A DNA stretch of 64,000 bases from positions 37,217-101,216 of the forward strand of contig JAKPTO010000026.1 in assembly GCA_029555085.1 (NCBI GenBank). The letters run 5' to 3'. Origin of the DNA: a bacterium. Lineage in GTDB: Bacteria > Patescibacteriota > Patescibacteriia > UBA1558 > S5-K13. A program made the position numbers and the translations under genes. Shown piece by piece: positions 21,522 through 59,570 of this stretch. The notes under the pieces were generated by a model. That model was not told the origin of the DNA. It did no database searches and worked only from the letters and a program-made list of their open reading frames with translations. Every line of letters starts with the position of its first letter. Within the stretch, counting starts at the first letter, position 1.

Positions 21522-21912
21522 GGGGATGTATCAATTTGATGCATAAAAAATTTGTTCTTTGGCAAGTCAAGTTTTGCGAAACTTGTAAAAAACGCTAAAT
21601 CATAAATGTCAAATCATTTATAGAAAAAGTTAAAGTTGCATTTAGTAATCCAGCTTTCAACTTTTCAATTGCTTAATCTTTTTTAAAAATTAAGCCATCC
21701 TCTATCTTCATACTCGATGGGGATTTACGAGGGTGTTATATTTTCGAGTTATACTATGGTAATTTCCATGTGCCATAGTGAAAACTTATGGAATATATAA
21801 ATAATATTTTTCTTATTTATAGTTATTTATAGAATTTTAAAAATAAGATAAACTTGTAGATAAAGAATGAATTGTTAGGCAGACAGGGGTTCAAATCCCC
21901 TCATCTCCACCA
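21522..21912 (+). ncRNA. ssrA: Transfer-messenger RNA (tmRNA, ssrA)
   Basis: The 5' GGGGAUG pairs with the 3' CAUCUCC acceptor strand. The 3' end GGGGTTCAAATCCCCTCATCTCCACCA is a T-arm, acceptor and CCA. A PK1-like TTTGCGAAAC element is present. Candidate tag frame is GCA TTT AGT AAT CCA GCT TTC AAC TTT TCA ATT GCT TAA. Confidence 0.8.
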
Positions 21913-23195: not shown

Positions 23196-23272
23196 GGAGC
23201 GGTAGTTCAGTTGGTTAGAACGCCTGCCTGTCACGCAGGAGGTCGAGGGTTCGAGTCCCTTCCGTTCCGCCA
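23196..23272 (+). tRNA. tRNA-Asp (anticodon GUC), CCA encoded
   Basis: Manual fold: GGAGCGG acceptor, anticodon stem-loop CCTGC-CTGTCAC-GCAGG, T-arm GAGGG-TTCGAGT-CCCTT, 77 nt. Confidence 0.85.
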
Positions 23273-46584: not shown

Positions 46585-47166
46585 TTAATTATTTAAAAAT
46601 TCAGACCATGTTTTACCAGAACCTGGAGTAATGTTTATTACCCATTTCCCCGGTGCCTTAGTACTGCCTAAAAATATCTGACAAGACAAAACATTTTCAT
46701 CTTTATTTTCATCTATAATAATAGACATTAAACCTTTTGGCATTGAAAAATTAATATCTAATGATTCTAATTCTTTTTCTTCGTATCCAAGTTCTGATTC
46801 ATCTTTAATTTTACACCGTAACTGATCAAAATAAAACTGACTTTCTAAAATATTTTCTGAATAAATTAAATTTTCATTATAAAAACCATAAACACCAATA
46901 TCTGCGTAAATATTATATGAATATGAACCATTTACATCCTTTAAAAAAATTATTCCATAACCATTAATAGGTACTGTATTTTGAATTTTTTGACCTGTTA
47001 GTGAAAGATTTTTTGTAAATCCTATTGAATCTTCTATGTCATAAGCTGTTAAACGAAATTCATTTATTCTTCTTGTATATCCATAATCAAGAATAACAAC
47101 ACTTAAGAGAATTACAAATATACCAATCGCAACTACAACCTCTATTATTGTAAAAGCTTTTTTCAT
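46585..47166 (-). CDS. Type IV pilin/pseudopilin with prepilin-type N-terminal motif
   Basis: MKKAFTIIEVVVAIGIFVILL. Confidence 0.7.
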   Translation of the reverse strand: MKKAFTIIEVVVAIGIFVILLSVVILDYGYTRRINEFRLTAYDIEDSIGFTKNLSLTGQKIQNTVPINGYGIIFLKDVNGSYSYNIYADIGVYGFYNENLIYSENILESQFYFDQLRCKIKDESELGYEEKELESLDINFSMPKGLMSIIIDENKDENVLSCQIFLGSTKAPGKWVINITPGSGKTWSEFLNN

Positions 47167-47960
47167 ATAATTAATAAATTAATATACCAATTCAATAATT
47201 GCTCTCCGAAAAGAAAAGAAATAAACATTGCAAAAGAAATAAATGGTCCAAGAGGAATTTTTAATTTAGTTTTTTCTTTTTTAGATTTAGATAATAAAAG
47301 AAAAATACCAATTATTGCTCCGGAAAAGTAAGTAATCAATAACGCCACAATTGTAATTTTAAATCCCAAAAGCGCACCCATAAAAACCCCGAGCAATATG
47401 TCTCCACTACCAAGCCATTTTCCTTTTGAAATAACATATTGTATACCAAAAAAAATTACTCCGAGAACAATCCCATAAAAAATATTTAAAATATTATTTT
47501 TCATTATTAAATTAAAAATAATAGATAAAACTATCCCCAAATAAACTATAAAATCCACTATTAAATAGTATTTCAAATCATAAATAAATATAAAAGACAA
47601 AATAAATACAAGTATTAAATAAAATATAAAGCTAATAATTAATTGACCATGAAGCCAAAGTCCAGAAACAAAGAAAAACCAATATCCGAATGAAAATAAA
47701 ATTCCTAGAATTACCTCAACAAAAAAATTCTCAAATTGAATCTTTGATTTACAATATCTACATTTCCCAAGTAAAACAATGTAAGAAAAAACTGGAATTA
47801 AATCTAAAATCCCCAATGTTTTTTTACAATTAAGACAATACGATCTATTAAGTATTGATTTTTCTTCATTTATTCGATAAATCAAGCAATCTAAAAAACT
47901 ACCAAAAACAGCCCCTAAAATAAAAAATAGTATATAGAACATACCATTATTATAGCACAA
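47163..47960 (-). CDS. Prepilin peptidase (A24 family)
   Basis: N-terminal zinc-binding CxxC...CxxC (CLNCKK...CRYCKS) and a polytopic membrane domain with GSGD. Confidence 0.8.
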   Translation of the reverse strand: MCYNNGMFYILFFILGAVFGSFLDCLIYRINEEKSILNRSYCLNCKKTLGILDLIPVFSYIVLLGKCRYCKSKIQFENFFVEVILGILFSFGYWFFFVSGLWLHGQLIISFIFYLILVFILSFIFIYDLKYYLIVDFIVYLGIVLSIIFNLIMKNNILNIFYGIVLGVIFFGIQYVISKGKWLGSGDILLGVFMGALLGFKITIVALLITYFSGAIIGIFLLLSKSKKEKTKLKIPLGPFISFAMFISFLFGEQLLNWYINLLII

Positions 47961-47996
47961 AATCTCGGATTATAATATTTATATTTTCATCCAAAA

Positions 47997-48614
47997 TTAC
48001 TTCAAAATTGTACCTGTTTTTATATACCAGATATAAATATCTAACTCTCCCTGACTCATATCCAATTTTTTGCATATTTTATGCATTTTTTTCTCTATTT
48101 CAATATATCTCTTTGGTGTTAATGTTTTATATTCAGCTATTATTCCGTTATCAATCAAACTACTAATAATATGCCTATCTAAAATAGCATAATCAAAAAA
48201 ACCAACATTTCTTAAAAAATGCGACGATTCCTTCATCCCAAGACCTTTTATATTTTTCAAAAGCCACATTCTTTTATCATTTTCTTCTAATAAAATATCT
48301 TTGATGTTTTTATACTTTCTTGCCAAAACAATACGATTCGCGCGTTGAGGCCAAAATCTATGACCTGATTTTTTCAAAAATCTTGCTAATTTTTCTTCAT
48401 TCCAATTTAAAAAACCATTCGGAGTTAATTTTTTTTGAATTTCAATTGACTCTTTTGCTTTCCAATTTGAAGTTAATAAACAATAACAAAGTTCAAAAAA
48501 CCATTCATTGTTTGATTTTTTGTTTAAAATTAAAAAATCTTTTAATCTTCTATCAATTTTATTTTTGATTTTTGATTTTCTTATTTCTTGAATTTTGTTT
48601 ATTAATTTTTTCAT
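47997..48614 (-). CDS. ogg: 8-oxoguanine DNA glycosylase/AP lyase, Ogg2-type (HhH-GPD)
   Basis: GLGMKESSHFLRNVGFFDYAILDRHI carries the HhH-GPD catalytic Lys and Asp. The start is moved to the internal MKKLINK (48614), which shortens the overlap with nth to about 56 nt. Confidence 0.55.
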   Translation of the reverse strand: MKKLINKIQEIRKSKIKNKIDRRLKDFLILNKKSNNEWFFELCYCLLTSNWKAKESIEIQKKLTPNGFLNWNEEKLARFLKKSGHRFWPQRANRIVLARKYKNIKDILLEENDKRMWLLKNIKGLGMKESSHFLRNVGFFDYAILDRHIISSLIDNGIIAEYKTLTPKRYIEIEKKMHKICKKLDMSQGELDIYIWYIKTGTILK

Positions 48615-49269
48615 AATGTAAACAATAATTTTTAATTTTACAAATATTACATTTTGGACCAATTGGCCTACAAATATTTTGACCAAACAATACTAATACA
48701 AAATTTATTTTTTTCCAGTACAACTTATCTAAATTTTTTCTTAAAAACATTTCGGTTTCATACGGAGTCCTTGTGTTTAAATATCCAATTCTATTTAATA
48801 TTCTATGAACATGCGTATCCACACAAATTGCTGGTTTTTTTAAAACTGTAGAAATATATAAATTTGCTGTTTTTCTCCCAATTCCTGGAAGTTTTATAAG
48901 TTCATCGATAGTTTCCGGAATTTTAGAATTGAAATCCTTATTTAAAACAAAACATAATTTTTTTAAATTTTTTGCTTTTGTTTTATAAAAACCAACTGGA
49001 TAAATCAATTTTTGTATTTGTAGATTTGTTAATTTTTGCAAATCTTTACAGTTGCTTACTTTTTCAAATAATCTTAATGATGACTCAAGAGTTGTTTTGT
49101 CTTTTGTTCGTGACGATAAAATTATTGAAATTAAAATCTGAAAATTGTTAAATTTTTTAGAATACAAAAAATCAACAGCAGGAAGTTCAAATTCACTAAC
49201 CTGCTGTGACAATAAATCAAGTATTTTTTCTATTTTTACTTTGATTTCCATAATCCATGAAGATTGCAA
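48559..49269 (-). CDS. nth: Endonuclease III
   Basis: HhH LPGIGRKTANLY, VDTHVHRILNRIG and a [4Fe-4S] ligand set C-x6-C-x2-C-x5-C (CRPIGPKCNICKIKNYC). Confidence 0.9.
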   Translation of the reverse strand: MQSSWIMEIKVKIEKILDLLSQQVSEFELPAVDFLYSKKFNNFQILISIILSSRTKDKTTLESSLRLFEKVSNCKDLQKLTNLQIQKLIYPVGFYKTKAKNLKKLCFVLNKDFNSKIPETIDELIKLPGIGRKTANLYISTVLKKPAICVDTHVHRILNRIGYLNTRTPYETEMFLRKNLDKLYWKKINFVLVLFGQNICRPIGPKCNICKIKNYCLHYEKINKQNSRNKKIKNQK

Positions 49270-49637
49270 TATGCTCTAACCGTAACAATATTTGCTTTAG
49301 CGTAGAAGTCTGCTTCTGGTTTATCTCCTGGATTTAAAAATTTCTTCCCAGACTTTCCATCATCAGTATTAATTTCAATCCACTCTATAAAATGAGATTC
49401 TTCCATTGGATGTTCAGTTGATCCAACCTTAACTTTGTAACCAAATTCTGTTTTTTCTATAATTGGAACATGTTTTTCATTACCCTGATCTTGTGATTTT
49501 TCTCCTTCTAATCTCATAGCCGTCCCACAACAAACAAGTGATTCTGCTCCAATGTTTAAAACCTCAATAACATTGCCACAAATATCACATTTATAAATCT
49601 GTTTTTTCTTTGTCATAATATTTAAATTAATAATCAA
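49236..49637 (-). CDS. dfx: Desulfoferrodoxin (two-iron superoxide reductase)
   Basis: N-terminal desulforedoxin-like YKCDICGNVIEV...CCGTAM; C-terminal centre II His/Cys ligands. The true start is probably the second Met (MTKKKQIYKC). Confidence 0.8.
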   Translation of the reverse strand: MIINLNIMTKKKQIYKCDICGNVIEVLNIGAESLVCCGTAMRLEGEKSQDQGNEKHVPIIEKTEFGYKVKVGSTEHPMEESHFIEWIEINTDDGKSGKKFLNPGDKPEADFYAKANIVTVRAYCNLHGLWKSK

Positions 49638-49692
49638 TTATAAAATTTTAAATACTAAGTAACCAAAATGGAAATTTGATTATTAGTTGTTG

Positions 49693-50262
49693 TTACTTGG
49701 ACATTGTTTCAAAATATGCTTTTGGGTGTTTACATGCTGGACATTCTTCTGGGGCATTTTCTGATTCATGAACATAACCACAATTTCTACAAACCCAATA
49801 AACTTTTTCTGATCTTACAAAAGTAGTATTGTTTTCTAAATGTTCTAAAAATTTCTTATACTTTTCTTCATGATGTCGTTCTGCCTCGGCAATACTCCTA
49901 AGTCTAATTGCAATATCTTTTAAACCCTCGCGTTCTGCTATATCAGCAAATTCTGGATACATTGATGTATGTTCATAATTTTCTCCAGCAATTGCTGCTT
50001 TTAAATTCGCAATTGTATCACCTAAAACAGTAGGACATTCTGAATCAACTTTTATAGCTTCTCCACTATTTTGAGTTAATTCGTTTATAAGTTTCATTAG
50101 AACTTTTGCATGTTCTTTTTCTTGATCTGCTGTTAGTGTAAAGTTAGCTGAAATCTCTTCAAATCCCTCTTTTTTAGCAACAGAAGCATAATAAGTATAT
50201 CTATTTCTAGCTTGTGATTCACCTATAAAAGCTTTTGCTAAATTTTTAATTGTTTCTTGCAT
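49693..50262 (-). CDS. rbr: Rubrerythrin
   Basis: Di-iron ferritin-like domain with a C-terminal rubredoxin-like CRNCGY...CPACKHP. Confidence 0.9.
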   Translation of the reverse strand: MQETIKNLAKAFIGESQARNRYTYYASVAKKEGFEEISANFTLTADQEKEHAKVLMKLINELTQNSGEAIKVDSECPTVLGDTIANLKAAIAGENYEHTSMYPEFADIAEREGLKDIAIRLRSIAEAERHHEEKYKKFLEHLENNTTFVRSEKVYWVCRNCGYVHESENAPEECPACKHPKAYFETMSK

Positions 50263-50339
50263 AATTTTTTAATTAATTATTAATATTTTAAGTATATCAA
50301 ATTCAAACAGCATTATAAAGCGTTGTTAATAGCGTATAA

Positions 50340-51554
50340 TTATTGATAATATTTATTTCTATTATAGTTAAATTCAAAAGATTTATTAAAATCAGATACT
50401 AATGATGGAATATTTGAAACCATAATTGACTCATCGTTTCTAAAAAATCCCCCAGAACTCCAATTATTTGTTCCAAAAAGAGCTATTTTATCATCAAAAA
50501 TCATTAGATGATGGTGTAAAAAAGAATTTAAATTTTGTTCATTAAATATTTGTTTTAATTCTTTATTTCTATTTTCATCAGTCAAAATTTCTAAATTATC
50601 TAAATGATTTTGCTTTTTCTTTTTTATCATAAAATTAAATACGGAACCATCTACTGAAAAATTATAATCATCTGTTAAAATTTTTACACTAATCTTTTTT
50701 GATGCTAATAATAAATCTTCTGCAATATCTCTATCTGTCATAAGCCAAATCATGGATTTTATGTTGTCCTTTGAATTCTCAATCAGATTCAACATTCTAT
50801 CCTTGATACCAGTATTTATTCTTTGTGGAGTAAACCAAATTTCTAAAAATCCTTCTGGATATTTTATAAGAGCAGCGAATGGATTATATTCTTTTGATAA
50901 TTTATCTCTTCCGCGTAAACCAGAAAATATTCTATCAAATTCCTCTCCATATATTTCAATAATTTCTGGCCTGTCAGTTTCTAAAATAAAACTCGGATCA
51001 TATTTATCTTGAATATAAGTAAAATTATAAGAACTAAAGAGTAATTTCTGGGTCTCCTCGCCTCTATCAATTATTATAAATTTATGATGCATGTATTCTG
51101 ATTTTTGAGTATTAATGTTCCTAGACAAAATATCTTTTCTTGTAATATTATCTCGCTTTTCTGAAAACAATCTATTATTTATATCTCTATGCACATCACT
51201 AAAAACTAATTTTATATTCACTCCTCTGTCTGATGCTTTATAAATTGCATCTCTTATCCTTTCGTCGTTCATAGAATAAATAGCCACTTCAATGGTTTTT
51301 TGTGCAGAATTTATAGAATCAATAACAATTTTTGACAAAATGTTTTGTCCAAATTCATCATTAAAATGTAAACTCCCTGAAAATGGTTCTGTGATTTCTA
51401 TGATTTTCGCAGGCCTAAATTCTACTATTCTTCTCTTCGAAAAAGATGTAAAAAATAAGTATATAAAAATTCCCATTGTAATTAATAAAAGAATTGGAAT
51501 TGCCCAAAAAATAAATGTCTTATGTGATTTTTCTAATTTCATCACCCAGCTCAT
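50340..51554 (-). CDS. Membrane-anchored phospholipase D-superfamily (HKD motif) protein; the second HKD motif is degenerate (HxHxxxxD)
   Basis: N-terminal TM segment; HHKFIIIDRG...FSSYNFT is a canonical HxKxxxxD..SxN motif. The second copy HHHLMIFDDKIALFGTNNWS lacks the Lys. Its start overlaps the upstream ABC-like gene by 35 nt. Confidence 0.55.
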   Translation of the reverse strand: MSWVMKLEKSHKTFIFWAIPILLLITMGIFIYLFFTSFSKRRIVEFRPAKIIEITEPFSGSLHFNDEFGQNILSKIVIDSINSAQKTIEVAIYSMNDERIRDAIYKASDRGVNIKLVFSDVHRDINNRLFSEKRDNITRKDILSRNINTQKSEYMHHKFIIIDRGEETQKLLFSSYNFTYIQDKYDPSFILETDRPEIIEIYGEEFDRIFSGLRGRDKLSKEYNPFAALIKYPEGFLEIWFTPQRINTGIKDRMLNLIENSKDNIKSMIWLMTDRDIAEDLLLASKKISVKILTDDYNFSVDGSVFNFMIKKKKQNHLDNLEILTDENRNKELKQIFNEQNLNSFLHHHLMIFDDKIALFGTNNWSSGGFFRNDESIMVSNIPSLVSDFNKSFEFNYNRNKYYQ

Positions 51555-53235
51555 ATTTTTGCTGATAAGTTAAATAATTATTATTTTCTTTTGAAAATAC
51601 TATAATAATAGAATCTTCAAGTTTTTCACTTAATATTTCTATTATTTTTATAATATCATTATAATTCAAATCAATCCAAATATTGTCAATAATAATAAGT
51701 TGTTTTTTATTAACTATGCAATGGAGCGCTTGAAGAGCAAAGCATGAAACATTATTATTAAAAGCCAACACACAAGAAGAATTAACATTATTTATAGAAG
51801 ATATTTTTGATGCAATAAATTGATTTTCAGATATTACCTTGATCACATTTTCAATTTCAGAAGAATTAATTTGTTCTTTATCTTTCCCTAAAATAAACTC
51901 CATCAAACTTTTTTCTGAAAATATTTTAGGATCGAAAAAATATGCGCCACAGAATAATTTTTGCCATATTGGATAATCATATCTTTTATTGTCTATTTTC
52001 ACCTTCATTGCCTTGGGATTATAAATACGCATTCCTGCAAAAATTTTAGCCAAACTTGTTTTTCCTGAAAAATTCTCTCCAAAAAATAAAATTCTTTCTG
52101 ATTTTTTAAAATGAAAATCTAGATTTCTGAAATATTTACCATCTTTAAATAATTTTGTTTTTTTTGCGTGAAACAATATTTCATTATGAATTTTTAAAGT
52201 ATTTTTTCTACGCAAAACTGCTCCTTTTTGCAATACTGTTAAAAACAAACCCAATCTTGCTGGAAAAAAATATAAACCAACTCTTAGCGCTTGATTAAGT
52301 GTTCTTGGAAAATAGAACATTAAAAATAAAAATAAAAATCTATTATCTCTACCAAGTAAATTTATAAAAGAAAAAAACTCATTTGTAAAAAAATTGCTTA
52401 AAATTACAATTATCAAAACTATCACAAATACAATTTTTGCGCTTATTCCAATCCAAAGATTTCTTCTAATGCGAAAAAAAGAATCTATATTAACAAGACG
52501 ATCAAACTTTTGTAGCACACTATCTTCATTATTAAAATTTTTATTAAAATATTTTTCTGATAAGCTAATATCGATATGTTTTATTATTTGTGAATAAAAA
52601 GTGACTTCTTGCGAAATATATTTTTTTGCAACATAATAAGCTATTATTCCTATAAGAATAGAAAGTGCCACGAAAAAAACGAAAACAATAAATAAATTTA
52701 ATCCTATTAAATATGCAATGAGCATTGCCACAGAAAAATATATGAACCATCTAATTATTCCAAAAAAAACAATTGATACACCCATTGAAACAAGCGATAA
52801 TTGATAAGAAATTTTTGCTATTAACCTACCCTGCCTTTCGTTGTTCATTGTTTCAACGGGTCTATCAATAAATGATTTAAATATTCTGCGCCTAATATCA
52901 TTTGCAAATAATACCACAATAGTTTTTTCTTGTTTTATAGAAAAAAATGAACTTATGATAAACAACAATATAAAAATAGCAAAAAATTGCCAAAAAAATG
53001 GGTCTAAAATACTATTTAGCTGAGATAATTTATTTCTACTAAATACAATAAGAAACGCTTCTATTACACAGGAAACAAAAATTAAAAGAACAAGACGCAA
53101 AATATAAAATTTATATTTTTTAAAAAAATCTCGTAAATACCCGTAATGTAAAAACGATAATTTTATATCTTTGTATTTATTCCTTGTTTTTCTAATTTCT
53201 TTTATTAATCTAATTTGTTCTTTTATTTCTTTCAT
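51520..53235 (-). CDS. ABC-exporter-like membrane protein (TMD-NBD fusion) with degenerate ATPase motifs
   Basis: About 330-aa polytopic N-terminal domain, then Walker A GENFSGKTS, a degenerate signature VSCFALQAL (versus LSGGQ) and Walker B LIIIDN (no catalytic Glu). It overlaps the RT stop by 26 nt. Confidence 0.5.
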   Translation of the reverse strand: MKEIKEQIRLIKEIRKTRNKYKDIKLSFLHYGYLRDFFKKYKFYILRLVLLIFVSCVIEAFLIVFSRNKLSQLNSILDPFFWQFFAIFILLFIISSFFSIKQEKTIVVLFANDIRRRIFKSFIDRPVETMNNERQGRLIAKISYQLSLVSMGVSIVFFGIIRWFIYFSVAMLIAYLIGLNLFIVFVFFVALSILIGIIAYYVAKKYISQEVTFYSQIIKHIDISLSEKYFNKNFNNEDSVLQKFDRLVNIDSFFRIRRNLWIGISAKIVFVIVLIIVILSNFFTNEFFSFINLLGRDNRFLFLFLMFYFPRTLNQALRVGLYFFPARLGLFLTVLQKGAVLRRKNTLKIHNEILFHAKKTKLFKDGKYFRNLDFHFKKSERILFFGENFSGKTSLAKIFAGMRIYNPKAMKVKIDNKRYDYPIWQKLFCGAYFFDPKIFSEKSLMEFILGKDKEQINSSEIENVIKVISENQFIASKISSINNVNSSCVLAFNNNVSCFALQALHCIVNKKQLIIIDNIWIDLNYNDIIKIIEILSEKLEDSIIIVFSKENNNYLTYQQKYELGDEIRKIT

Positions 53236-54427
53236 AATGAAAGTCTAAATAAAAATTATATAATGATTTTATTTTTAAATATTCTATCTCTTTTCTTAAC
53301 AACCTTCTGTTGCGTGGTGAATATTTACCAAATATAAAATCTGTTAAAATACGGAAAAAATCTTCTGATAATTTTTTTATTTGTTCTGAGTTATTGATTT
53401 GTGGTTTATCTTTTATAATTTTTTGAAATTGGTAGTTAAAATTTTTTTCTGGATGTCCCATAATCCTTCTCAGTAAATACTTTTTTTTACTTAAATTATA
53501 ATTTTTATATTTTAAAATACTTTTCCAACCAGCAATAATACGCTTAATATATGATTTTTCTAAACTAATAATTCCTGAATTAAAGCAGTAGCCTAAAAAA
53601 GAAAAATTTTCTTTTGCATCACCAATAAATAATTTGCTATTATTTATTGTTAAATTTCTAATATTCAAATCTTTGATAATTTCTAATTTTAATTTATTTA
53701 GCTTGTCTATGTTATTATCAAAAATACCTATATCATCTCCTATTCTTATATAAAATGAACATTGTTTTTGATATTTATGATCAAGGTCTGTTAAATATAA
53801 ATTATTAAAAAGTGCTATTAGTGGAACACCCTGGACAAGACCTATATCAGGTGCTTCTATCTTACCATTTTTATATATTTTATTAAAAATAAATAATTTT
53901 AATAAATCTAATATTTTTCTATCTTCAAAAATGTTTTCCAGTTGTGAGTATAAAACATTCTTATCAATCAAGTCAGAATAGTTTTCCAAATCTAACACTA
54001 ATGCTTTGTCTGTAGAAAAATTTTTCCTATATCTATGGCAAAAATTTTTTGCTGCAAAATATGGTGGCTTGCCCGGCCTATATGAAAACAATCTTTTTGA
54101 AAAAACTTTTTCAAATTCTGGTAATAAAACTCTATAAATTGCCTGTGCTTTTATACGATCTTTTATATTATAAATAAAAATATCCCTGAATTTCTCGGGA
54201 TTATTTTTTTTAGGAATTGAAACAATAAGTGCTGGCTCAATTTCCCTATTTTCAACTAATTCTTTTTGACAAATATCTATAAGCTCCTTTGAATTTAAAT
54301 CTCTGTCTTGTATTGAAATATTATCCAAACCGTGATATCTAAAACTTTTACTATCTATAGAAAATTTTTCCACTATATCTAAATAAGCAGATCGAATATT
54401 ATCATAAGATACAATTTTATTAAACAT
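53210..54427 (-). CDS. Stand-alone reverse transcriptase (retron/defence-associated RT-like), IGDD active-site variant
   Basis: RT motifs 0-7: SYDNIRSAYLDI; IPKKNNPEKFRDIF...IKDRIKAQAIYRVLLPEFE; FSYRPGK; ALVLDLENYSDLID; GLVQGVPLIALFNNLYLTDLD; YIRIGDDIGIF; FLGYCF. There is no endonuclease or maturase domain and no room for group II intron RNA. Confidence 0.75.
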   Translation of the reverse strand: MFNKIVSYDNIRSAYLDIVEKFSIDSKSFRYHGLDNISIQDRDLNSKELIDICQKELVENREIEPALIVSIPKKNNPEKFRDIFIYNIKDRIKAQAIYRVLLPEFEKVFSKRLFSYRPGKPPYFAAKNFCHRYRKNFSTDKALVLDLENYSDLIDKNVLYSQLENIFEDRKILDLLKLFIFNKIYKNGKIEAPDIGLVQGVPLIALFNNLYLTDLDHKYQKQCSFYIRIGDDIGIFDNNIDKLNKLKLEIIKDLNIRNLTINNSKLFIGDAKENFSFLGYCFNSGIISLEKSYIKRIIAGWKSILKYKNYNLSKKKYLLRRIMGHPEKNFNYQFQKIIKDKPQINNSEQIKKLSEDFFRILTDFIFGKYSPRNRRLLRKEIEYLKIKSLYNFYLDFHYERNKRTN

Positions 54428-54433
54428 ATTTTT

Positions 54434-54615
54434 AAAAATCGTCCTCAGGATATATAATAAAAATACTATATATTAATAAATCTAATGAAGACCCCCGTCC
54501 ACAAACTGGTTACAACCGTTTCCATTTTAATTAATTCGATATTAACGAATATAAAAAATTAAAACTAAAACGATTATTAATATCTCCTAAAATAGGAGTT
54601 TTGAGGATGATTTTT
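54434..54615 (-). other. Noncoding region bounded by a 14-bp inverted repeat, directly upstream of the RT gene; candidate msr/msd-like ncRNA locus
   Basis: AAAAATCGTCCTCA (54434-54447) and TGAGGATGATTTTT (54602-54615) are reverse complements with one mismatch, 154 nt apart. An internal hairpin CTCCT-AAAAT-AGGAG lies at 54584-54598. The GC-rich segment gacccccgtccacaaactggttacaaccgtttcc is also present. The proximal arm lies 10 nt from the RT start codon. Confidence 0.35.
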
Positions 54616-54694
54616 AAAAGTACATAATATATTATAGCATGTCAATAAAGCGTATGTAAAGAATAAATATATAATTTTGTGATATAATTAATCT

Positions 54695-56758
54695 ATGAAT
54701 CTAGATACAACACTTGATAAAATCTACGGAATAGGTCCAACAATCTATAAAAAATTACAAAAAATCGGATTAAATACAATATCTGATGCTATTTTTTATT
54801 ATCCATTTAGATATGAAGATTTTTCCCATTTAAAACAAATAAATGAGCTTGTAAATGAAGAATCTGCCACTATAAAAGGAAAAATCATACTTTTAAACAA
54901 TAAGAGATCTCCTAGAAAAAAAATGAATATCACTGAAATGCTTTTAGGAGATGATTCCGGACAAATTCAGATAATTTGGTTTAATCAACCATATATTAAA
55001 AATATATTACAAATTGGAGATGAGATATTTGTTTCAGGTGTTGTAAAAAAATCACTTTTGGGATTATCACTTATAAATCCAAATTATGAAAAAACTAATA
55101 GAGACACATCACACACTGCAAGAATTATTCCTATATATCCATCAACAGAGCATTTATCACAGAAACAACTTAGATACATAATAAAACAATCCTTGTCTTG
55201 TATAAATGAATTACATGAAAGGTTACCAAGTCAAATTATTAAAAAAGAAAATTTAATAGAAATAAAAGAGGCAATAAAACAAATTCACTTTCCAGATAAT
55301 TATAAAAAATTAGATCTTGCAAAAAAAAGATTATCATTTGATGAAATATTTTTATTATCATGTTTATCAAAATTTATTAAAAAACAAAATATTGAATTAA
55401 GCGCTCCTCAAATTAATTTCAAGGAAAAACAGATAAAAGATTTAGTAAAAAAAATTCCATTTAAATTAACAGAAGATCAAAGAAAGGCAACCTGGCAAAT
55501 TCTAAAAGATATTAGCCACAAAATTCCAATGAATAGACTTCTTGAAGGCGATGTAGGAAGTGGAAAGACAATTGTTTCTTTTATCTGCGCTTACAATGTA
55601 ATCTTGAACAAATATCAAGCAATTTTAATGTCTCCTACTCAGATTTTAACAAAACAACACTTTGAAAATGCTGTAAAATTTTTCAAGGACTATGATATTA
55701 ATATTTTACTTTTTACAAACTCTGACAGATTATTATTTAATGGAAAAAAACAATTAGCACAAAAATTAACAAAAAAAGAAATTAATAAGTTTGTCAAAAA
55801 ATCTGATTTTATAATAGGAACTCATTCTTTAATTCAGCAAAATGTAGAATTCAAAAATATTGGGCTCATAATAATTGACGAGCAACACAGATTCGGAGTT
55901 AAGCAGCGTCAAGAATTAACAAAAAAATCAGATATTAGTCCACACTTTTTATCAATGACTGCAACTCCAATTCCAAGATCTCTAGCGCTTACAATTTATG
56001 GAGATTTAGATATTTCAAAAATTTTACAAAAACCAGCAAACAGAAAAAAAATTATTACAAAATTTGTATATTCTCGCAACAGAACAAAAGCTTATGAATT
56101 TATTTATAACCAGATCCAAAACGGCAGACAAGTTTTTGTTGTGTGTCCACTTATAAATGAATCGGATAAATTAGGAGTAAAATCCGTAATGAGTGAATAT
56201 GAAAAATTAAGCAACGACATTTTTCCAAATTTAAAAATAGAATATTTACATGGAAAAATGAAAGAAACAGAAAAGCAAAAAATTCTAAAAAGTTTTTCTG
56301 ACAATGAAACAAAAATTTTAGTATCAACTTCTGTTATTGAGGTTGGAATTGATTTTCCAAATGTAACAATAATGATAATTGAAGGTGCTGATAGATTTGG
56401 ATTGGCATCACTCCATCAATTTCGAGGTCGTGTTGGTCGCGGAGAACATCAATCATTTTGCTTTTTATTTTCTGAATCAAACTCAGAAAAATCCCGTAAA
56501 CGTTTAGAAATATTAACAAAAACAGATAATGGATTTGAACTCGCAGAATATGATTTAAAATTTCGTGGAAGTGGAGATTTGTATGGAATAAAACAATCAG
56601 GATTTATGAATGGAGTGAAAATTGCAGATTTATCAGATTTAGAATTAATCAAAAAATGCAATATTTGGGCTCAATATATTTTTGAAAAAGGTCTTGAAAA
56701 ATTCCCTCAAATAAAAAAAGAGATAGAATTACTATCTTCTGATATTCACTTGGAATAA
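54695..56758 (+). CDS. recG: ATP-dependent DNA helicase RecG
   Basis: N-terminal wedge/OB domain; Walker A GDVGSGKT; DEQH box IIDEQHRFG; TATPIPRSL; QFRGRVGRG. Confidence 0.9.
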   Translation: MNLDTTLDKIYGIGPTIYKKLQKIGLNTISDAIFYYPFRYEDFSHLKQINELVNEESATIKGKIILLNNKRSPRKKMNITEMLLGDDSGQIQIIWFNQPYIKNILQIGDEIFVSGVVKKSLLGLSLINPNYEKTNRDTSHTARIIPIYPSTEHLSQKQLRYIIKQSLSCINELHERLPSQIIKKENLIEIKEAIKQIHFPDNYKKLDLAKKRLSFDEIFLLSCLSKFIKKQNIELSAPQINFKEKQIKDLVKKIPFKLTEDQRKATWQILKDISHKIPMNRLLEGDVGSGKTIVSFICAYNVILNKYQAILMSPTQILTKQHFENAVKFFKDYDINILLFTNSDRLLFNGKKQLAQKLTKKEINKFVKKSDFIIGTHSLIQQNVEFKNIGLIIIDEQHRFGVKQRQELTKKSDISPHFLSMTATPIPRSLALTIYGDLDISKILQKPANRKKIITKFVYSRNRTKAYEFIYNQIQNGRQVFVVCPLINESDKLGVKSVMSEYEKLSNDIFPNLKIEYLHGKMKETEKQKILKSFSDNETKILVSTSVIEVGIDFPNVTIMIIEGADRFGLASLHQFRGRVGRGEHQSFCFLFSESNSEKSRKRLEILTKTDNGFELAEYDLKFRGSGDLYGIKQSGFMNGVKIADLSDLELIKKCNIWAQYIFEKGLEKFPQIKKEIELLSSDIHLE

Positions 56759-56793
56759 ATTAAGAATATAAAATAAGCTAAACAATTCAAAAC

Positions 56794-58131
56794 TTAAATT
56801 AAAAACTTTTTAAGTTCTTTTATATTTTTGATACAATTCAAATTAATTCCTTTTACATCAACTGCTTTTTCAAAACTTGGAATAATTATATTTTTAAATC
56901 CTAAATTCACTGCTTCTTTTATTCTCTCTTTTGTTTTTGGTATTTGTCTAATTTCTCCATTGAGTCCTACTTCACCAAAAAATACTGAATTTTCCATAAT
57001 TTTTTTATTTTCATATGATGAATAAATTGCCACCGCAACCGCTAAATCAAGCGCGCGGTCCGAAACTTTGAAGCCACCAGTTAAATTAATATAAACATCA
57101 TATAAATTTAATTTTAAATCTAATTTTGATTGAAGTACTGCTATAAGTAATTCTAATCTTTTCTGATCATAACCAGATACGGTTCTTTTTGGATAACCAA
57201 AATTTGTTTTTGATACAAGTGCTTGAAGTTCTAACATTAAAACCTGATTTCCTTCTATAATAGAAGTAATTGCCGTGCCTGAACTTTCTGGATTAATTGA
57301 TGACAAATAAATTTTTGATGGATTTATCACTTCTTTAAATCCTGATTTTGTCATCTCTAAAATTACCGACTCATCAGTTGCTCCAAATCTATTTTTAACA
57401 GATTTCAAAATTCTAAATCTATGCAATCTATCACCTTCAAGACTCAGTACGCAATCAACTAAATGTTCCATTGTTTTAGGTCCCGCTAAATCACCTGATT
57501 TATTTACATGACTTATGATGAGAGTTGCAATATTAAATTTTCTTGCAATTTCCATAATTTTTACAGTACAAGCCCTTACTTGCGCGACTCCACCTGGATC
57601 GCTTTCAATCTCACTCGTGTAAAGTGTTTGAATTGAATCTATAATTAAAAAATCTGGTTTGATTTTTAATATTCCAGCTAGAATTATTTCTATATTATTT
57701 TCTGCCAAAAACTTTACTACTTTACTATCAACTTCCAATCTATCAAAACGAGATTTTACTGAACTTGCACTCTCTTCTCCTGAAACATATAAAGTATTTA
57801 AACTCTTGTTTATAATTTGAGAAATAATTGTAGATTTTCCAATCCCCGGCTCACCACCAAGTAAAACCAAAGAAGAAGGAACTAATCCTCCTCCGACTAC
57901 TTTATCAAAATAAGTTAATCCTGTTTTTATTTTTTTAACTTGTTCATTTTTTATTTTTGACAAATCTATGAAATCAACTTTTAAATCTTTTAAATTTTCT
58001 GTTTTGTCTTTTCTTTCGTCTTCGATAAATGTTTCTTTTTCTAATGTTCCCCAAGCACCACACTCAATACACTTTCCAGCCCATTTCGGAAATTGTGCTC
58101 CACATTTTGAACATGAATATATTGTTTTCAT
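56794..58131 (-). CDS. radA: DNA repair protein RadA (Sms)
   Basis: N-terminal zinc finger CSKCGAQFPKWAGKCIECGAWG, Walker A GGEPGIGKST, KNRFG motif, Lon-like C-terminal domain. Confidence 0.9.
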   Translation of the reverse strand: MKTIYSCSKCGAQFPKWAGKCIECGAWGTLEKETFIEDERKDKTENLKDLKVDFIDLSKIKNEQVKKIKTGLTYFDKVVGGGLVPSSLVLLGGEPGIGKSTIISQIINKSLNTLYVSGEESASSVKSRFDRLEVDSKVVKFLAENNIEIILAGILKIKPDFLIIDSIQTLYTSEIESDPGGVAQVRACTVKIMEIARKFNIATLIISHVNKSGDLAGPKTMEHLVDCVLSLEGDRLHRFRILKSVKNRFGATDESVILEMTKSGFKEVINPSKIYLSSINPESSGTAITSIIEGNQVLMLELQALVSKTNFGYPKRTVSGYDQKRLELLIAVLQSKLDLKLNLYDVYINLTGGFKVSDRALDLAVAVAIYSSYENKKIMENSVFFGEVGLNGEIRQIPKTKERIKEAVNLGFKNIIIPSFEKAVDVKGINLNCIKNIKELKKFLI

Positions 58132-58157
58132 TTAATTATATTAGTTTTATATTTATA

Positions 58158-59570
58158 TTATCTACCGATTCCCTTTCTTGCTATATTCTCAAATCCTAAT
58201 TCTTTGCATTTATTATAACGAGCTAATTTTAAATTACCAGTAGAAATAGCCCACTGACTCGTTGTGCCTCCAGCATATCTTCTAAAACAAAGTTCCAAGT
58301 TACCATCTTTACAATACTGATGTTTCCATCCTAAAACAAAAGCTTCTAAATTAGAATCAATAGTTAATAATGAATCAAAACTAAAACACTTATTTTGATA
58401 TATAAAACCATTATTATTATTACATAAAATATCTTGTTTAGAATGGTAAGTAATTTGACCCAAACCCAATCCAAATGTATAACCTTTTTTATTTATATAG
58501 TTTTTCCAATTAGAAATAGAGACCCCTGGAATATTTTTATCATAAACATACTTAGAGCAATTAGGATTATTACACAACTCTCTTTTATTGCTATTAATTT
58601 TTCCTGCCAACCAATCCTTGCAACAAGAAGGATAAAGATTACATATATGTGCCCTGCGAGCAATAATATCACAAGCCGTGTCTCTAGTAACAGCCGAGTC
58701 ATTGCCAAATGCTCTTGGGTCTCCTCCTGATTCTTGATGAATTACAGCATAATAAATACACTCATCTATATTGTTCCACTTAGCAGACTTTTGAATACCA
58801 ACAATTACTTCCTCAGAAAAAATATGACTATCACCAACAGATTTTATATTAGACCCAGATCCAATATAAGAACCACTACTAGCTAATTCATATCTATCAA
58901 CTTCAATAGGTATAATCTTCTCCACCTTTATTGGTACTATATTCAACAAGGCTGGATTTATTGTTTGGAGTATCAAAACAGAAGAAACGCATAAAACAAA
59001 CCCTATTAAAGCATTTTGTAGTCTTGATTTAGCTTCCCCTATTTTACTCTGATTTCCTCCTGCTAATACCCACTGAAAACCAGCCAATATTATTGCTAAA
59101 ACAGCCACGATTCCTGATAAATATATTAAATATCTAAAAAGTACTACTAAAAAATCTCCAATCAAAGCACCGCTTACCTCTACTTCACTTCTAAAACCTG
59201 GTATTCCGACTTCTGGAGTAAATGATATAGATTTTGGTTCCCCAGGAGTTTCATCTACGCCTTCATTTGAATTATTTTGACAATCAGAAGCCCATTGTTT
59301 AATAGCCTCCTGTTTATAGTGATTACGAAATTCAATATCATGCACAACTTCAGCTGGAAATCCAGCTGCCGTATTCTGCAACTCCCTATCCATCCAAGTC
59401 GTATACAAACCCTGATAATCAACGCTAGATTTATTTAAATCAGTGGCCGGACAATAACTCGGCCTTAAGTATTTTAAATTGGGATCATCCGGTAACTGTG
59501 CCTCTACGCCTCTAAAAAAAAACAGAAACGCTACACTAAAAATAAATAAATATCTCCTTATCTTATTCAT
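58158..59570 (-). CDS. Secreted/membrane protein with a VirB2/TrbC-like paired-TM segment and a C-terminal Cys-rich lytic transglycosylase (SLT/VirB1-like) domain
   Basis: Signal peptide. Two hydrophobic helices separated by a short loop (…GFQWVLAGGNQSKIGEAKSRLQNALIGFVLCVSSVLIL). The SLT catalytic motif IHQESGGDPRAFGN...FGLGLGQIT has many Cys residues in inserts. Confidence 0.45.
   Translation of the reverse strand: MNKIRRYLFIFSVAFLFFFRGVEAQLPDDPNLKYLRPSYCPATDLNKSSVDYQGLYTTWMDRELQNTAAGFPAEVVHDIEFRNHYKQEAIKQWASDCQNNSNEGVDETPGEPKSISFTPEVGIPGFRSEVEVSGALIGDFLVVLFRYLIYLSGIVAVLAIILAGFQWVLAGGNQSKIGEAKSRLQNALIGFVLCVSSVLILQTINPALLNIVPIKVEKIIPIEVDRYELASSGSYIGSGSNIKSVGDSHIFSEEVIVGIQKSAKWNNIDECIYYAVIHQESGGDPRAFGNDSAVTRDTACDIIARRAHICNLYPSCCKDWLAGKINSNKRELCNNPNCSKYVYDKNIPGVSISNWKNYINKKGYTFGLGLGQITYHSKQDILCNNNNGFIYQNKCFSFDSLLTIDSNLEAFVLGWKHQYCKDGNLELCFRRYAGGTTSQWAISTGNLKLARYNKCKELGFENIARKGIGR

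Follow-up and report, generated by a model that had tools for sequence, protein, structure and literature searches.

Characterised members of the class 2 UG/Abi reverse transcriptases (RTs) use noncoding RNAs (ncRNAs), according to two reports (PMC9226505; PMC12632851). In DRT10, a template adjoins a stable boundary helix (PMC12632851). For the UG families, the accessible text of PMC9226505 predicts ncRNAs for UG2, UG8, UG27 and UG28 and mentions none for UG26; the neighbour reported for UG26 is an occasional Vsr-like endonuclease rather than ABC and PLD genes. The domesticated group II-like RT G2L4 acts in DNA repair; its function-defining change lies at the X of YxDD (YIDD), and it keeps the Tyr and its Phe gate, F150 (bioRxiv 10.1101/2025.01.14.632616). 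In other RTs, an incoming nucleotide has its sugar contacted by the gate Phe and by the residue in second place of YADD, and the Tyr contacts a substrate base (PMC8363836; bioRxiv 10.1101/2025.01.14.632616). F143, the gate residue of the group II intron RT GsI-IIC, is described as a residue that all RTs conserve and that keeps rNTPs out, and an F143A mutant still makes DNA efficiently (PMC8363836).

The window, by which we mean the whole stretch of 64,000 nucleotides analysed here, encodes an RT that, together with an upstream ncRNA, a pseudo-ABC membrane protein and a phospholipase D (PLD) family protein, appears to make up a previously undescribed four-part system of these ultra-small bacteria, the Patescibacteria. 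A preliminary description of this DNA had drawn attention to the RT motifs; it did not cover the most informative features, namely the loss of the gate aromatic, the ncRNA that goes with the RT upstream, and the ABC-like and PLD genes as obligate partners. Coordinates below are positions in the window, and all the features given lie on its minus strand, the preliminary description having named no strand for the RT.

Motifs, fold and placement of the RT

The RT gene (53210..54427) is an uninterrupted ORF of 405 aa with a group-II-intron-like fold, and the Pfam profile RVT_1 covers residues 71-280 (50 bits; cutoff 29.6). Motif C/5 reads RIGDD (53732..53746) and motif B/4 reads QGVPLIA with the usual SP replaced by IA (53813..53833), as the preliminary description had it, and both readings are borne out by the coding sequence and the family alignment. 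Motif 7 reads FLGY. The RT is intact and retains, like the rest of the family, the catalytic residues D146, D231, D232, K265, K73 and R81; RT length is also uniform over the family (more than 160 proteins).

Judged from the alignments, RIGDD and QGVPLIA characterise the family and are not chance changes. Motif C is VGDD in 109, IGDD in 9 and LGDD in 2 of 120 homologues. As the 161 family members compared were picked for having GDD, the Gly found in all 161 reflects that choice; the residue preceding GDD is Val in 141, Ile in 10, Leu in 3, Met in 3, Cys in 2 and Tyr in 2. Among the 92 nearest RTs outside the family, the first residue of YxDD is Tyr (87) or Phe (5) and the second is mostly Ala (56), Ser (27) or Gly (5). 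At the SP position of motif 4, family members have Ile, Val or Thr followed by Ala, Gly, Ser or Val, whereas outside the family Ser (72) or Ala (19) is followed by Pro (84). A further change lies in motif A, DLENYSD (D146 to D152; 53972..53992), where a gap-free HMM alignment pairs DlknysD with DLEKFFD and places S151 at the steric-gate position held by F143 in GsI-IIC. The residue at this position is Ser in 120, Thr in 22 and Phe in 10 of the 161 members (Ser/Thr in 142), compared with Phe in 88 of the 92 neighbouring RTs. Y150, which precedes the gate position, is kept in 155 of the 161 members. Across the family, four residues near the catalytic site are, as aligned, replaced: Val/Ile stands for Tyr and Gly for Ala of YADD, Ser/Thr for the gate Phe, and IA for SP. 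The nucleotide pocket is rebuilt in a way seen in no characterised RT. The aromatic steric gate appears to be lost, and Y150, from its place in the alignment and model, might substitute as the gate.

The AlphaFold2 model (pLDDT 92.4, pTM 0.85) predicts the full fold of a group II intron RT, thumb included. With Foldseek, the chain superposes from end to end, thumb and D regions included, on full-length GsI-IIC (TM 0.78-0.80; 408-442 alignment columns); other structural matches include DRT9 and DRT2. A C-terminal extension without a recognisable X domain had been proposed previously. The extension of ~115 aa after motif 7 exists and has no match in Pfam, but the supposed absence of an X domain does not hold, since the full-length superposition on GsI-IIC identifies this tail as the likely equivalent of the thumb/X region and a D-like helical region. 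The tail (residues ~291-405; 53210..53557) would form six helices, with block-mean pLDDT of 92-98 to residue 390, 85 at 391-400 and below 50 at 401-405.

By profile comparison, the RT fits no named clade at a member-level score, which agrees with the unusual or unclassified clade suggested in the preliminary description. With the PADLOC profile RT_UG26, the match is confined to the RT domain and reaches 107 bits, whereas a genuine UG26 protein (P0181) matches over its full length with 472 bits; the NCBIfam group II RT profile TIGR04416 scores 124.9 bits against a curated cutoff of 300. When the RT domain is taken by itself, the highest-scoring PADLOC profile is the CRISPR-type RT profile PDLC01136 (132 bits), which gives 244-289 bits for the five proteins scored (RT-Cas1, RT-PrimPol or stand-alone). 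The UG17/DRT10 (86.4 bits) and Drt9 (55.7 bits) profiles are likewise below member level or cutoff, and no Drt2 profile was among the PADLOC matches at E<=1. Retron RT profiles score at most 23 bits (RT_IX 23, RT_II-A 21), and a search for DGR-type TR/VR repeats in 47000-59000 returned only AT-rich matches of 35-46 nt with 71-75% identity; these results agree with the preliminary description, which had found neither the retron-specific NAxxH/VTG motifs nor a DGR-style motif 4. The best PDB sequence match is a group II intron RT (114 bits), with G2L4 at 38 bits.

UG26, a class 2 UG/Abi RT, is by these comparisons the nearest named family: the genuine UG26 protein aligns to window RT residues 33-389, C-terminal domain included, and in a rough NJ tree UG26 sequences fall inside the smallest clade enclosing all GDD-family members. 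UG26 keeps YxDD, and CRISPR RTs keep Y[AS]DD. RVT_1 is the sole Pfam match of the window RT, with no match to RdRp family profiles, while a sister protein (P0165) passes the RdRP_1 threshold (33 vs 23.9) and a family member (P0082) barely passes Bunya_RdRp (25.1 vs 25). A full-text literature search found the VGDD or IGDD motif in no paper, and no report that connected an RT with Patescibacteria/Falkowbacteria, with an ncRNA, or with the pair of ABC transporter and phospholipase D.

The upstream ncRNA and the downstream partners

Directly upstream of the RT start codon, and on the same strand, folding and covariation define a structured ncRNA of ~193 nt (54428..54620). It has an MFE of -54.7 kcal/mol (z = -5.4 vs shuffles) and scores 130 bits with the covariance model R1; an Rfam search of 49000-59000 gave no family at E<=1. 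The architecture is shared by 23 independently folded homologues and consists, in order, of the closing helix P1, P2, J2/3, a long P3 with an apical hairpin, the variable P4, the conserved J4/5 and P5. A structure-blind MAFFT alignment has 89.3% of cells paired vs 38-48% when slid, and over 60 distinct sequences 90.2% are paired vs 37-45% in the control, with double changes in 52 of 56 pairs. A promoter-like site, TTTACA with an 18-nt spacer and a TG-extended TATAAT (54631..54660), is recognised by consensus match only; it is the best match within 50200-54800 (11/12 positions plus TG) and its predicted start lies a few bases before the 5' end of the ncRNA.

Covariation supports P1, in which a pyrimidine-rich 5' strand (54602..54619) pairs with a purine-rich, Shine-Dalgarno-like 3' strand (54430..54447): compensatory changes occur in 17 of 18 pairs and 91% are paired. 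The distance from the end of the covariance model to the RT start codon is 0-70 nt depending on the clade, and this variation makes a general role of P1 in masking the ribosome site doubtful. Covariation likewise supports a pseudoknot between J2/3 (AUAUUAA, 54577..54583) and the P3 apical loop (UUAAUAU, 54539..54545), which is closed by the 4-bp stem of the hairpin at 54534-54550. The pseudoknot pairs, which stand outside the covariance model, have double changes in 7/7 and 91.9% of cells paired (93.8% on the MAFFT alignment), and the closing stem is 96% paired with 4/4 pairs covarying. The P5 hairpin (54450..54473) has compensatory changes in 10 of 11 pairs. The P4 arm (54490..54512) differs in length and sequence between homologues, is the main difference between two tandem ncRNA copies at one locus (L008), and has no second copy of its sequence within the window. 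J4/5 (54474..54489; consensus CUCAUUGGAUUUAAU) is a conserved single-stranded segment with the core CUCAUUG across clades, and is a candidate RT contact or template-initiation site. Where identified, which is the case in more than 50 of 69 genome loci and ~30 of 40 independently sampled metagenome loci, the ncRNA always lies on the RT strand and upstream of the gene. In two loci (L002 and L101) it lies ~2 kb from the RT, in four loci terminator-like hairpins occur between ncRNA and RT, and several loci have tandem ncRNA copies.

The gene overlapping the RT 3' end by 26 nt (51520..53235) encodes a 571-aa membrane protein of ABC-exporter fold with a degenerate nucleotide-binding domain (NBD). 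It matches ABC_membrane (31 bits; cutoff 28) and ABC_tran (25.8; cutoff 25) in Pfam and, weakly, PDB profiles of type-I exporters (MsbA, PglK, PCAT1-type). In its family the Walker B Asp is kept in 62/62 and followed by Asn in 58/62 instead of Glu, the LSGGQ signature and switch His are absent from the proteins compared, and one distant member also misses Walker A. From these motifs, the protein is predicted to have an exporter fold without catalytic motifs and to be hydrolysis-dead. The next gene (50340..51554; 35-nt overlap with the ABC gene) encodes a membrane-anchored tandem PLD-family protein of 404 aa and Nuc/NucT/Zucchini type, with two stretches matching PLDc_2 (108 bits) and with Zucchini/MitoPLD, NucT and Nuc as nearest solved relatives by PDB profile. 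Its invariant motifs are H156-x-K158...D163...N177, a canonical HxK(x)4D(x)6G..N, and H347-x-H349...D354...G361..N364, which is invariantly HxH(x)4D(x)6GxxN. Lys and Arg number 128 in the N-flank of its single TM helix vs 59 in the C-flank, an asymmetry that predicts PLD catalytic domains outside the cell. One distant homologue carries an LTD domain, which is typical of secreted bacterial nucleases, on its PLD protein.

Association of these genes is strict. Where contigs allow the test, RT-seeded loci have an adjoining ABC-like gene in 65/65 and PLD in 62/62, and ABC-seeded loci have the RT in 40/40 and PLD in 37/37; in every one of the 69 mapped loci, the ABC-like and PLD genes follow immediately downstream of the RT. 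A relative with 27% RT identity still has the triad, another has it in rearranged order, and sister RTs with RYGDD adjoin ABC exporters in 2/2 informative contexts. Inheritance of the system looks vertical: synteny persists down to ~41% RT identity (e.g. RecG upstream in the window and in L055), genomes carry 1-3 paralogues of the system, three old paralogous clades coexist in single genomes, and 2.9 million viral contigs yielded 1 match. Neighbours include pilins, giant surface proteins, sigma/anti-sigma pairs and rubrerythrin, and no cas-like genes were among the recurrent neighbour clusters inspected. The loci inspected have no defence-island signature, which speaks against a defence role, as do the conserved synteny and old coexisting paralogues, which are more typical of vertically inherited cellular functions.

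Possible mechanism and role

We give a probability of roughly 0.5 to the RT being the polymerase subunit of an undescribed four-part system that depends on the ncRNA and is coupled to a membrane complex. As we infer it from sequence, alignment and model, a single promoter would read through the ncRNA, the RT, the pseudo-ABC protein and the outward-facing PLD nuclease, the overlapping genes being probably translationally coupled. The RT would bind the upstream ncRNA as a dedicated scaffold and template, like class 2 UG/Abi RTs (DRT2/9/10) and retrons, and polymerise a short product, for which the variable P4 arm or the neighbouring junction strands are the most plausible source. With the gate aromatic lost and Gly in motif C, it is probably poor at excluding ribonucleotides. 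At the membrane, the hydrolysis-dead ABC-like protein may provide a dock or conduit, and the ecto-nuclease may act as the effector or as a processor. The least certain step is the role, for which a retron- or DRT-like conflict system (phage defence or exclusion) is a tentative choice held at somewhat less than even odds; nucleic-acid trafficking at the envelope is ranked just behind it. PLD domains predicted to lie outside the cell are a poor fit for a cytoplasmic abortive-infection nuclease.

In a housekeeping envelope pathway of an episymbiont, an RT product made on the ncRNA would be handled at or through the ABC-fold protein and cut or attached outside by the PLD, or conversely foreign nucleic acid would be imported and then copied by the RT. 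The spatial order of a cytoplasmic RT, a membrane protein and a predicted outward PLD suits such a pathway, as do the LTD domain of the distant homologue, vertical inheritance with conserved synteny and stable paralogues, the single viral match and the frequent pilin or giant-surface-protein neighbours; NucT-type PLD nucleases also act in DNA uptake and purine salvage. We nonetheless hold it to be somewhat unlikely. To our knowledge, ABC-mediated export or import of RT products has no precedent, an NBD that lost its hydrolysis motifs implies that active transport needs another energy source, and the adjacency of pilin and surface genes may mean little in genomes that have many of them. Also unlikely, and more so, is an RT that is no longer a DNA polymerase and copies part of the ncRNA as an RNA-templated RNA or mixed ribo/deoxyribo polymerase. 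The Ser/Thr gate of most members, the invariant GDD as in RdRps, the threshold scores of P0165 and P0082 and the exclusion of rNTPs by the otherwise conserved F143 are consistent with this, and gate mutants of MMLV and HIV RT incorporate rNTPs. However, the window protein matches RVT_1 only, the widely kept Y150 might act as gate, 10 of 161 members retain the gate Phe, and GsI-IIC remains an efficient DNA maker with F143A. It is improbable that a cell-encoded bacterial enzyme of RT descent, with the sugar gate lost and GDD gained, works in vivo as such an RNA-templated RNA (or mixed) polymerase on its own pseudoknotted RNA and passes its product to the hydrolysis-dead ABC-fold conduit for trimming or attachment at the surface by the ecto-PLD; if true, this would be a nucleic-acid export or display pathway of ultra-small episymbiotic bacteria, not phage defence.

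The ncRNA could instead be only a cis-acting leader controlling operon expression, as a riboswitch or as an autoregulatory site bound by the RT in the manner of DIVa of group II introns, and neither template nor scaffold. Such a leader would fit the extent of the ncRNA, from the predicted transcription start to just short of the AUG, the resemblance of the 5' strand of P1 to an anti-Shine-Dalgarno opposite the Shine-Dalgarno-like 3' strand, and the terminator-like hairpins that follow in some loci; pseudoknotted, junction-rich folds are also typical of riboswitches. Yet the P1-AUG distance varies widely between clades, the terminators do not overlap P1, and in L002 and L101 the ncRNA is far from the RT. 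In addition, the ncRNA strictly co-occurs with its RT family, and dedicated ncRNAs are used by all of the nearest characterised relatives of that family; its otherwise conserved fold has a hypervariable arm, where the L008 copies mainly differ. A leader function alone has a low probability. The remaining reading, a mobile group II intron in decay or another leftover selfish retroelement of no cellular function, is effectively refuted: the RT is nearest group II intron RTs by sequence and structure, but intron RNA domains are lacking (0 Rfam matches), the ABC gene overlaps the RT 3' end, gene partners and synteny are fixed, and length and catalytic residues are uniform over the family.

Comparison with known systems

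The four-part system resembles several described systems in part. Like UG26, the RT has a size of ~400 aa and no extra enzymatic domain, but UG26 keeps YxDD and the Phe gate and the window family does not. Group II intron RTs (GsI-IIC, PDB 6AR1/6AR3/7K9Y) provide the best PDB sequence match and the full-length fold match, whereas the window RT falls below the group II cutoff, lacks intron RNA, has fixed cellular gene partners and belongs to a family with [VI]GDD for YADD, S/T for F143 and IA for SP. G2L4 is likewise a domesticated group II-like RT, but the similarity is weak and G2L4 keeps the Tyr and F150 that the window family is without; G2L4 is not known to have a partner ncRNA or to be accompanied by ABC or PLD genes. 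CRISPR-associated RTs are the nearest large outgroup in the all-protein search, yet the window protein is RT-only, without Cas1 fusion, and the CRISPR RTs keep the Phe gate along with Y[AS]DD. With viral RdRps, the window family shares an invariant G230-D231-D232.

Unlike the pseudo-ABC and PLD found here outside any defence-island context, the partners of DRT2, DRT9 and DRT10 are none or SLATT, the UG17 and Drt9 profiles score far below member level on the window RT, and the ncRNA fold in the window matches no Rfam family. What these systems share with the locus is an RT of ~400-500 aa with a dedicated structured ncRNA beside its gene. From retrons, the locus differs in the low retron profile scores and FLGY motif 7 of its RT, in the pseudoknotted multi-helix fold of its ncRNA and in effector types not listed for retrons. 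It is nevertheless like retrons in its gene order of ncRNA, RT and effector(s), in the hypervariable internal arm of its ncRNA, and in ncRNA ends joined by a covarying P1 as in retron a1/a2, by analogy only as the fold differs.

Altered motifs and nucleotide pocket of the reverse transcriptase

The reverse transcriptase (RT) gene occupies exactly 53210-54427 on the minus strand and is uninterrupted, encoding 405 aa, of which residues 71-280 match Pfam RVT_1 with 50 bits (cutoff 29.6). Direct translation places DLENYSD (motif A) at 53972-53992, QGVPLIA (motif 4) at 53813-53833 and RIGDD (motif C) at 53732-53746, all on the minus strand; the ORF, the Pfam match and the translation together bear out the RT with RIGDD and QGVPLIA reported in the preliminary description. 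The window has a G+C content of about 21-39% with genes including RecG, RadA and rubrerythrin, and the closest RT homologues are from Patescibacteria (Falkowbacteria, Magasanikbacteria). The 188 relatives given by a word-indexed protein search vary little in length (about 400-420 aa). At E<=1e-30 an exhaustive search gave 47 representatives of 50%-identity clusters, followed by a long tail of other RTs.

Judging from the aligned sequences, the motif variants are a trait of the whole family. Among the first 120 proteins, motif C is VGDD in 109, IGDD in 9 and LGDD in 2. We picked 161 family members by the presence of GDD and compared them with the 92 non-family RTs nearest to them. The residue preceding GDD is V in 141 members, I in 10, L and M in 3 each, and C and Y in 2 each, versus Y in 87 and F in 5 of the non-family RTs. 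The second residue of motif C is G in all 161, as the selection dictates, and A (56), S (27) or G (5) in the comparison set. The 'S' position of motif 4 is mostly I (106), V (18) or T (16) in the family versus S (72) or A (19) outside it, and the 'P' position is A (111), G (17), S (12) or V (11) versus P (84). Three proteins with RYGDD (P0160, P0165 and P0168) look like intermediates. As D146, D231, D232, K265, K73 and R81 are conserved among the 161 members, the RT looks catalytically competent. Near the N-terminus, Y31 (window 54335-54337) is a family-specific Tyr (146/161), at a position that is mostly A, S or T in neighbouring RTs; model confidence is lower in the 20 residues around it (block pLDDT 77-79), and a role for Y31 in priming or stacking is pure speculation.

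Profile alignment to the group II intron RT GsI-IIC runs without gaps from the catalytic Asp to the next Asp (DlknysD versus DLEKFFD), and therefore sets S151 opposite F143 and Y150 opposite F142. At the gate position the 161 members have S (120), T (22), F (10), A (5), G (2) or I (1), versus F in 88 of the 92 outgroup RTs. In GsI-IIC, the gate residue F143, described as conserved throughout RTs, stacks on the deoxyribose and keeps out rNTPs (PMC8363836). G2L4 retains the gate equivalent, F150, and in YxDD it is likewise the second residue that is packed onto the sugar of the incoming nucleotide (bioRxiv 10.1101/2025.01.14.632616). Of the four replacements specific to the family, at least two are thus at residues that touch this sugar in other RTs. 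The loss of the steric gate and the remodelled pocket, as placed by alignment of the members with the outgroup, were absent from the preliminary description and extend it. Gate mutants of the MMLV and HIV RTs are reported to incorporate rNTPs, and by analogy with them the family RT would discriminate less against ribonucleotides, so that its sugar selectivity is probably relaxed.

The RT has a group II-like fold; its catalytic residues are intact, and its nucleotide pocket is remodelled. An AlphaFold2 model from an 86-sequence alignment (pLDDT 92.4, pTM 0.85) was searched against the PDB with Foldseek, which ranked GsI-IIC RT first (TM 0.78-0.80 over 408-442 columns), followed by DRT9, G2L4, DGR, other group II RTs and DRT2. 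Since the match is full-length, the C-terminal 115 residues form a thumb/X and D-like region in the model, and the earlier view of a C-terminal extension without a recognisable X domain is to be given up.

By profile score, the proposed position outside the characterised RT clades stands, as all named-family scores are well below member level. The RT scored 107 bits with PADLOC RT_UG26 (472 for the genuine member P0181), 132 with the CRISPR-type PDLC01136 (244-289 for five proteins) and 125 with the NCBIfam group II RT profile (cutoff 300); its scores were 86 with UG17/DRT10, 56 with Drt9 and 23 or less with the retron profiles. In a rough NJ tree, UG26 sequences lie inside the smallest clade holding all family members, with CRISPR-type RTs next. 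In PMC9226505, a defence role for UG26, which belongs to the class 2 UG/Abi RTs, is called inconclusive, and the contigs of true UG26 proteins were too short to inform on gene context. A search for TR/VR repeats of the DGR type in 47000-59000 was empty, and a DGR was dropped, in line with the lack of a DGR-style motif 4 in the preliminary description. Against Pfam, the window RT matched RVT_1 alone and no RdRp profile. Two other proteins, both also matching RVT_1, gave weak signals: the sister RT P0165 (L120) exceeded the gathering threshold of the viral RdRP_1 profile (33 versus 23.9 bits), and the family member P0082 barely exceeded that of Bunya_RdRp (25.1 versus 25).

A pseudoknotted RNA, probable partner of the RT

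The RNA (ncRNA) encoded upstream of the RT is a pseudoknotted structured RNA. A promoter-like site at 54660-54631 (minus strand) matches 11 of 12 consensus positions plus the TG, and the 193 nt between it and the RT start codon (54428-54620) fold at -54.7 kcal/mol (z = -5.4 versus shuffles). Homologous upstream regions, each folded alone, give a common architecture of a long closing helix P1, hairpin P2, strand J2/3, a long P3 with a 7-nt apical loop, a variable arm P4, the conserved strand J4/5 (CUCAUUGGAUUUAAU) and hairpin P5. Across 23 sequences aligned with MAFFT without structural information, 89.3% of cells are paired versus 38-48% with slid partners, with double changes in 43 pairs; among 60 distinct sequences the values are 90.2% versus 37-45% in controls. 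The pseudoknot between J2/3 and loop 3, whose pairs lie outside the covariance model, is 91.9% paired with double changes in 7/7 pairs. In more than 50 of 69 genome loci, the covariance model places the ncRNA upstream of the RT and on its strand, and it does so too in about 30 of 40 metagenome loci, which were gathered through the ABC protein rather than the RT. We regard it as a well-supported new structured RNA family. A target for P4 was sought in the window and none was found. Another covariance-model match at 28274-28387 (plus strand; 21.7 bits, E 0.005) lies inside a 428-aa ORF and was taken as chance.

An Rfam scan of the locus at E<=1 gave no match, so the ncRNA is neither a known family nor an intron domain; even with a group II-like RT beside it, an intron remnant is hardly credible. 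Across the whole window, Rfam found only a tmRNA (21522-21912, 91 bits) and one tRNA, tRNA-Asp(GTC) (23196-23272), and no rRNA was found. It could also be argued that the RNA is only the leader of the RT message. Tandem copies precede a single RT in L008 (5519-5707 and 5822-6003), L013 (5632-5801 and 5808-6003) and L029 (5603-5783 and 5788-6000), and also in L036, L068, L080, L096 and L107; the L008 copies are near-identical outside the variable P4/J4-5 region, as if two RNA 'cartridges' shared a single RT. In L002 (3805-3987; RT at 6001) the ncRNA is about 2 kb upstream of the RT, with two type IV pilin-like genes in between, and in L101 (156-375; RT at 2180) about 1.8 kb upstream. Terminator-like hairpins with a U tract stand between the ncRNA and the RT start codon in L043 (5975-6000), L045 (about 915-945), L035 (about 5960-5990) and L040 (about 1320-1345), suggesting a discrete transcript, or attenuation, in some lineages. 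None of these features is decisive; together they favour a discrete partner RNA, and a mere leader is very unlikely.

In many homologues the P1 3' strand (window 54430-54447) is an extended Shine-Dalgarno-like sequence, GGGGGUGAU, and the P1 5' strand (54602-54619) is similar to the 16S 3' tail, AUCAUCCUC. For the clade of the window, masked translation of the RT is a possibility; for the others it is not. P1 as a general Shine-Dalgarno sequestrator was dropped, given the wide variation in its distance to the AUG and its lack of Shine-Dalgarno character in two clades. An alternative pairing of the J4/5 'CCUCA' with the P1 3' strand was also dropped, as by inspection the segments do not covary.

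Membrane partners and inheritance

The RNA and the RT belong to a deeply conserved new module with a pseudo-ABC protein (51520-53235) and a phospholipase D (PLD) nuclease (50340-51554), both on the minus strand. When neighbouring ORFs were clustered, a 571-aa family and a 400-aa family stood downstream of nearly all RTs. With tblastn, the ABC-like gene was found after the RT in all loci with room (65/65), and so was the PLD gene (62/62); metagenome loci seeded with the ABC protein have the RT upstream in 40/40 and the PLD gene downstream in 37/37. In the window the genes overlap by 26 nt (RT/ABC) and 35 nt (ABC/PLD). The ABC-like protein has a type-I exporter TMD and an NBD, both barely above the Pfam thresholds, with weak PDB profile matches to type-I exporters. 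Among 62 sequences, Walker A is mostly retained (K in 54), the Walker B Asp (62/62) is followed by Asn instead of the catalytic Glu in 58, and neither LSGGQ nor the switch His was found; in a distant member Walker A is lost too. The PLD protein has two PLDc_2 domains (108 bits), with Zucchini/MitoPLD, NucT and Nuc as nearest solved relatives, and both its HxK motif and an HxH variant are invariant. It has a single N-terminal TM helix, flanked by 128 K/R before and 59 after, a charge pattern that predicts catalytic domains outside the cell.

A relative with a 27%-identical RT retains both partners (hhalign E 6.5e-45 and 9e-43). In the distant member L123:2721-7996 (GCA_042568435.1) the PLD gene, which encodes an LTD domain, comes first, then a non-coding gap, the RT and the ABC gene; within the gap are 2-3 tandem non-coding repeats of about 197 nt (92-96% identical), with G+C above the flanks and a sequence unrelated to the window-type ncRNA. 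RYGDD sister RTs are convergent with, and adjoin, ABC exporter genes in 2/2 informative contexts, L116:1059-4134 (P0160) and L119:13-3297 (P0168), where the two genes overlap tail-to-tail; the exporter inspected, that of L116, has an intact Walker B Asp-Glu and the switch His. Neighbours such as a SoxA-type cytochrome c suggest a non-Patescibacteria host for these contigs, so the link between RT and ABC may be older than the Patescibacteria family.

Flanking genes differ among the three RT clades and are conserved inside each. RecG is upstream in both the window and L055 (RT identity 41%), and rubrerythrin and desulfoferrodoxin are downstream in both the window and L001. In the window, the PLD gene is immediately followed by rubrerythrin-like and desulfoferrodoxin-like genes (49236-50262, minus strand); L008 and L011 again have rubrerythrin, about 2.4 kb downstream. 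Members of different clades occur in one genome (L006 with L030, L012 with L042, L005 with L067). Pilins, giant surface proteins and sigma/anti-sigma pairs make up the neighbourhood rather than defence genes. A G+C-richer stretch at 15-19 kb of the window is an 1847-aa ORF (14813-20356, minus strand) with a collagen-like GxxGxx run, repeated 'GNVGIGT(T/N)xP' units and a Ser/Thr/Glu-rich tail; by eye, this ORF, which was outside the neighbour clustering, resembles the giant protein (cluster c6) upstream of one paralogous RT clade. One of 2.9 million contigs in a viral collection carries the system, L069 (IMGVR_UViG_3300001866_000229), with the ncRNA upstream of the RT (40.8 bits); this is probably a piece of host DNA wrongly labelled viral. 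A phage-borne element was dropped, since this single locus, with an ncRNA of the same kind, resembles a host contig.

Possible roles and relation to known systems

By analogy with DRT2/9/10 and retrons, the ncRNA would be both scaffold and template for the RT, and the ABC-like and PLD pair may act at the membrane downstream of it. We give this reading, an RT-ncRNA polymerase with a membrane pair, a probability of about 0.5. Phage defence is favoured by base rates, and as the purpose of the module it is a tentative proposal at somewhat less than even odds. Vertical inheritance, stable paralogues, the lack of defence islands and a predicted outward-facing nuclease pull towards a cellular envelope function; the trafficking of nucleic acid at the envelope, by export, display or uptake, is a rival reading that we rate as somewhat unlikely. 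In a further alternative, the RT would act as an RNA polymerase. The altered gate leaves room for this, and the family may be a lineage shifting towards RNA synthesis; we consider RNA-polymerase chemistry unlikely.

Full-text literature searches gave no description of the family, motif or operon; the tree of Toro 2019 was outside these searches, so an unnamed G2L or unclassified branch of that tree may include some members. Literature on VGDD/IGDD, on Falkowbacteria/Patescibacteria with RT, and on RT with ABC transporter and phospholipase D gave nothing relevant, and the myRT paper does not mention the family.

The family likely represents domesticated RT-ncRNA systems with unusual enzymology and partners. 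The pseudo-ABC membrane protein and the predicted outward-facing PLD nuclease, a combination for which we found no description, add a new class of such systems. To our knowledge, few defence or retroelement systems apart from DGRs are known in Patescibacteria. Compact RT-ncRNA pairs are under exploration as programmable tools for nucleic-acid synthesis. In all characterised RTs known to us, the incoming sugar lies over an aromatic gate and the catalytic motif is Y/F-x-DD, or L-V-DD in telomerase; with the gate, motif C and motif 4 all changed and the catalytic residues kept, the family is a natural experiment on sugar selectivity. In view of the apparent vertical inheritance and stable paralogues, a domesticated RT may here serve the cell in a role other than defence, for which G2L4 and telomerase are rare precedents.
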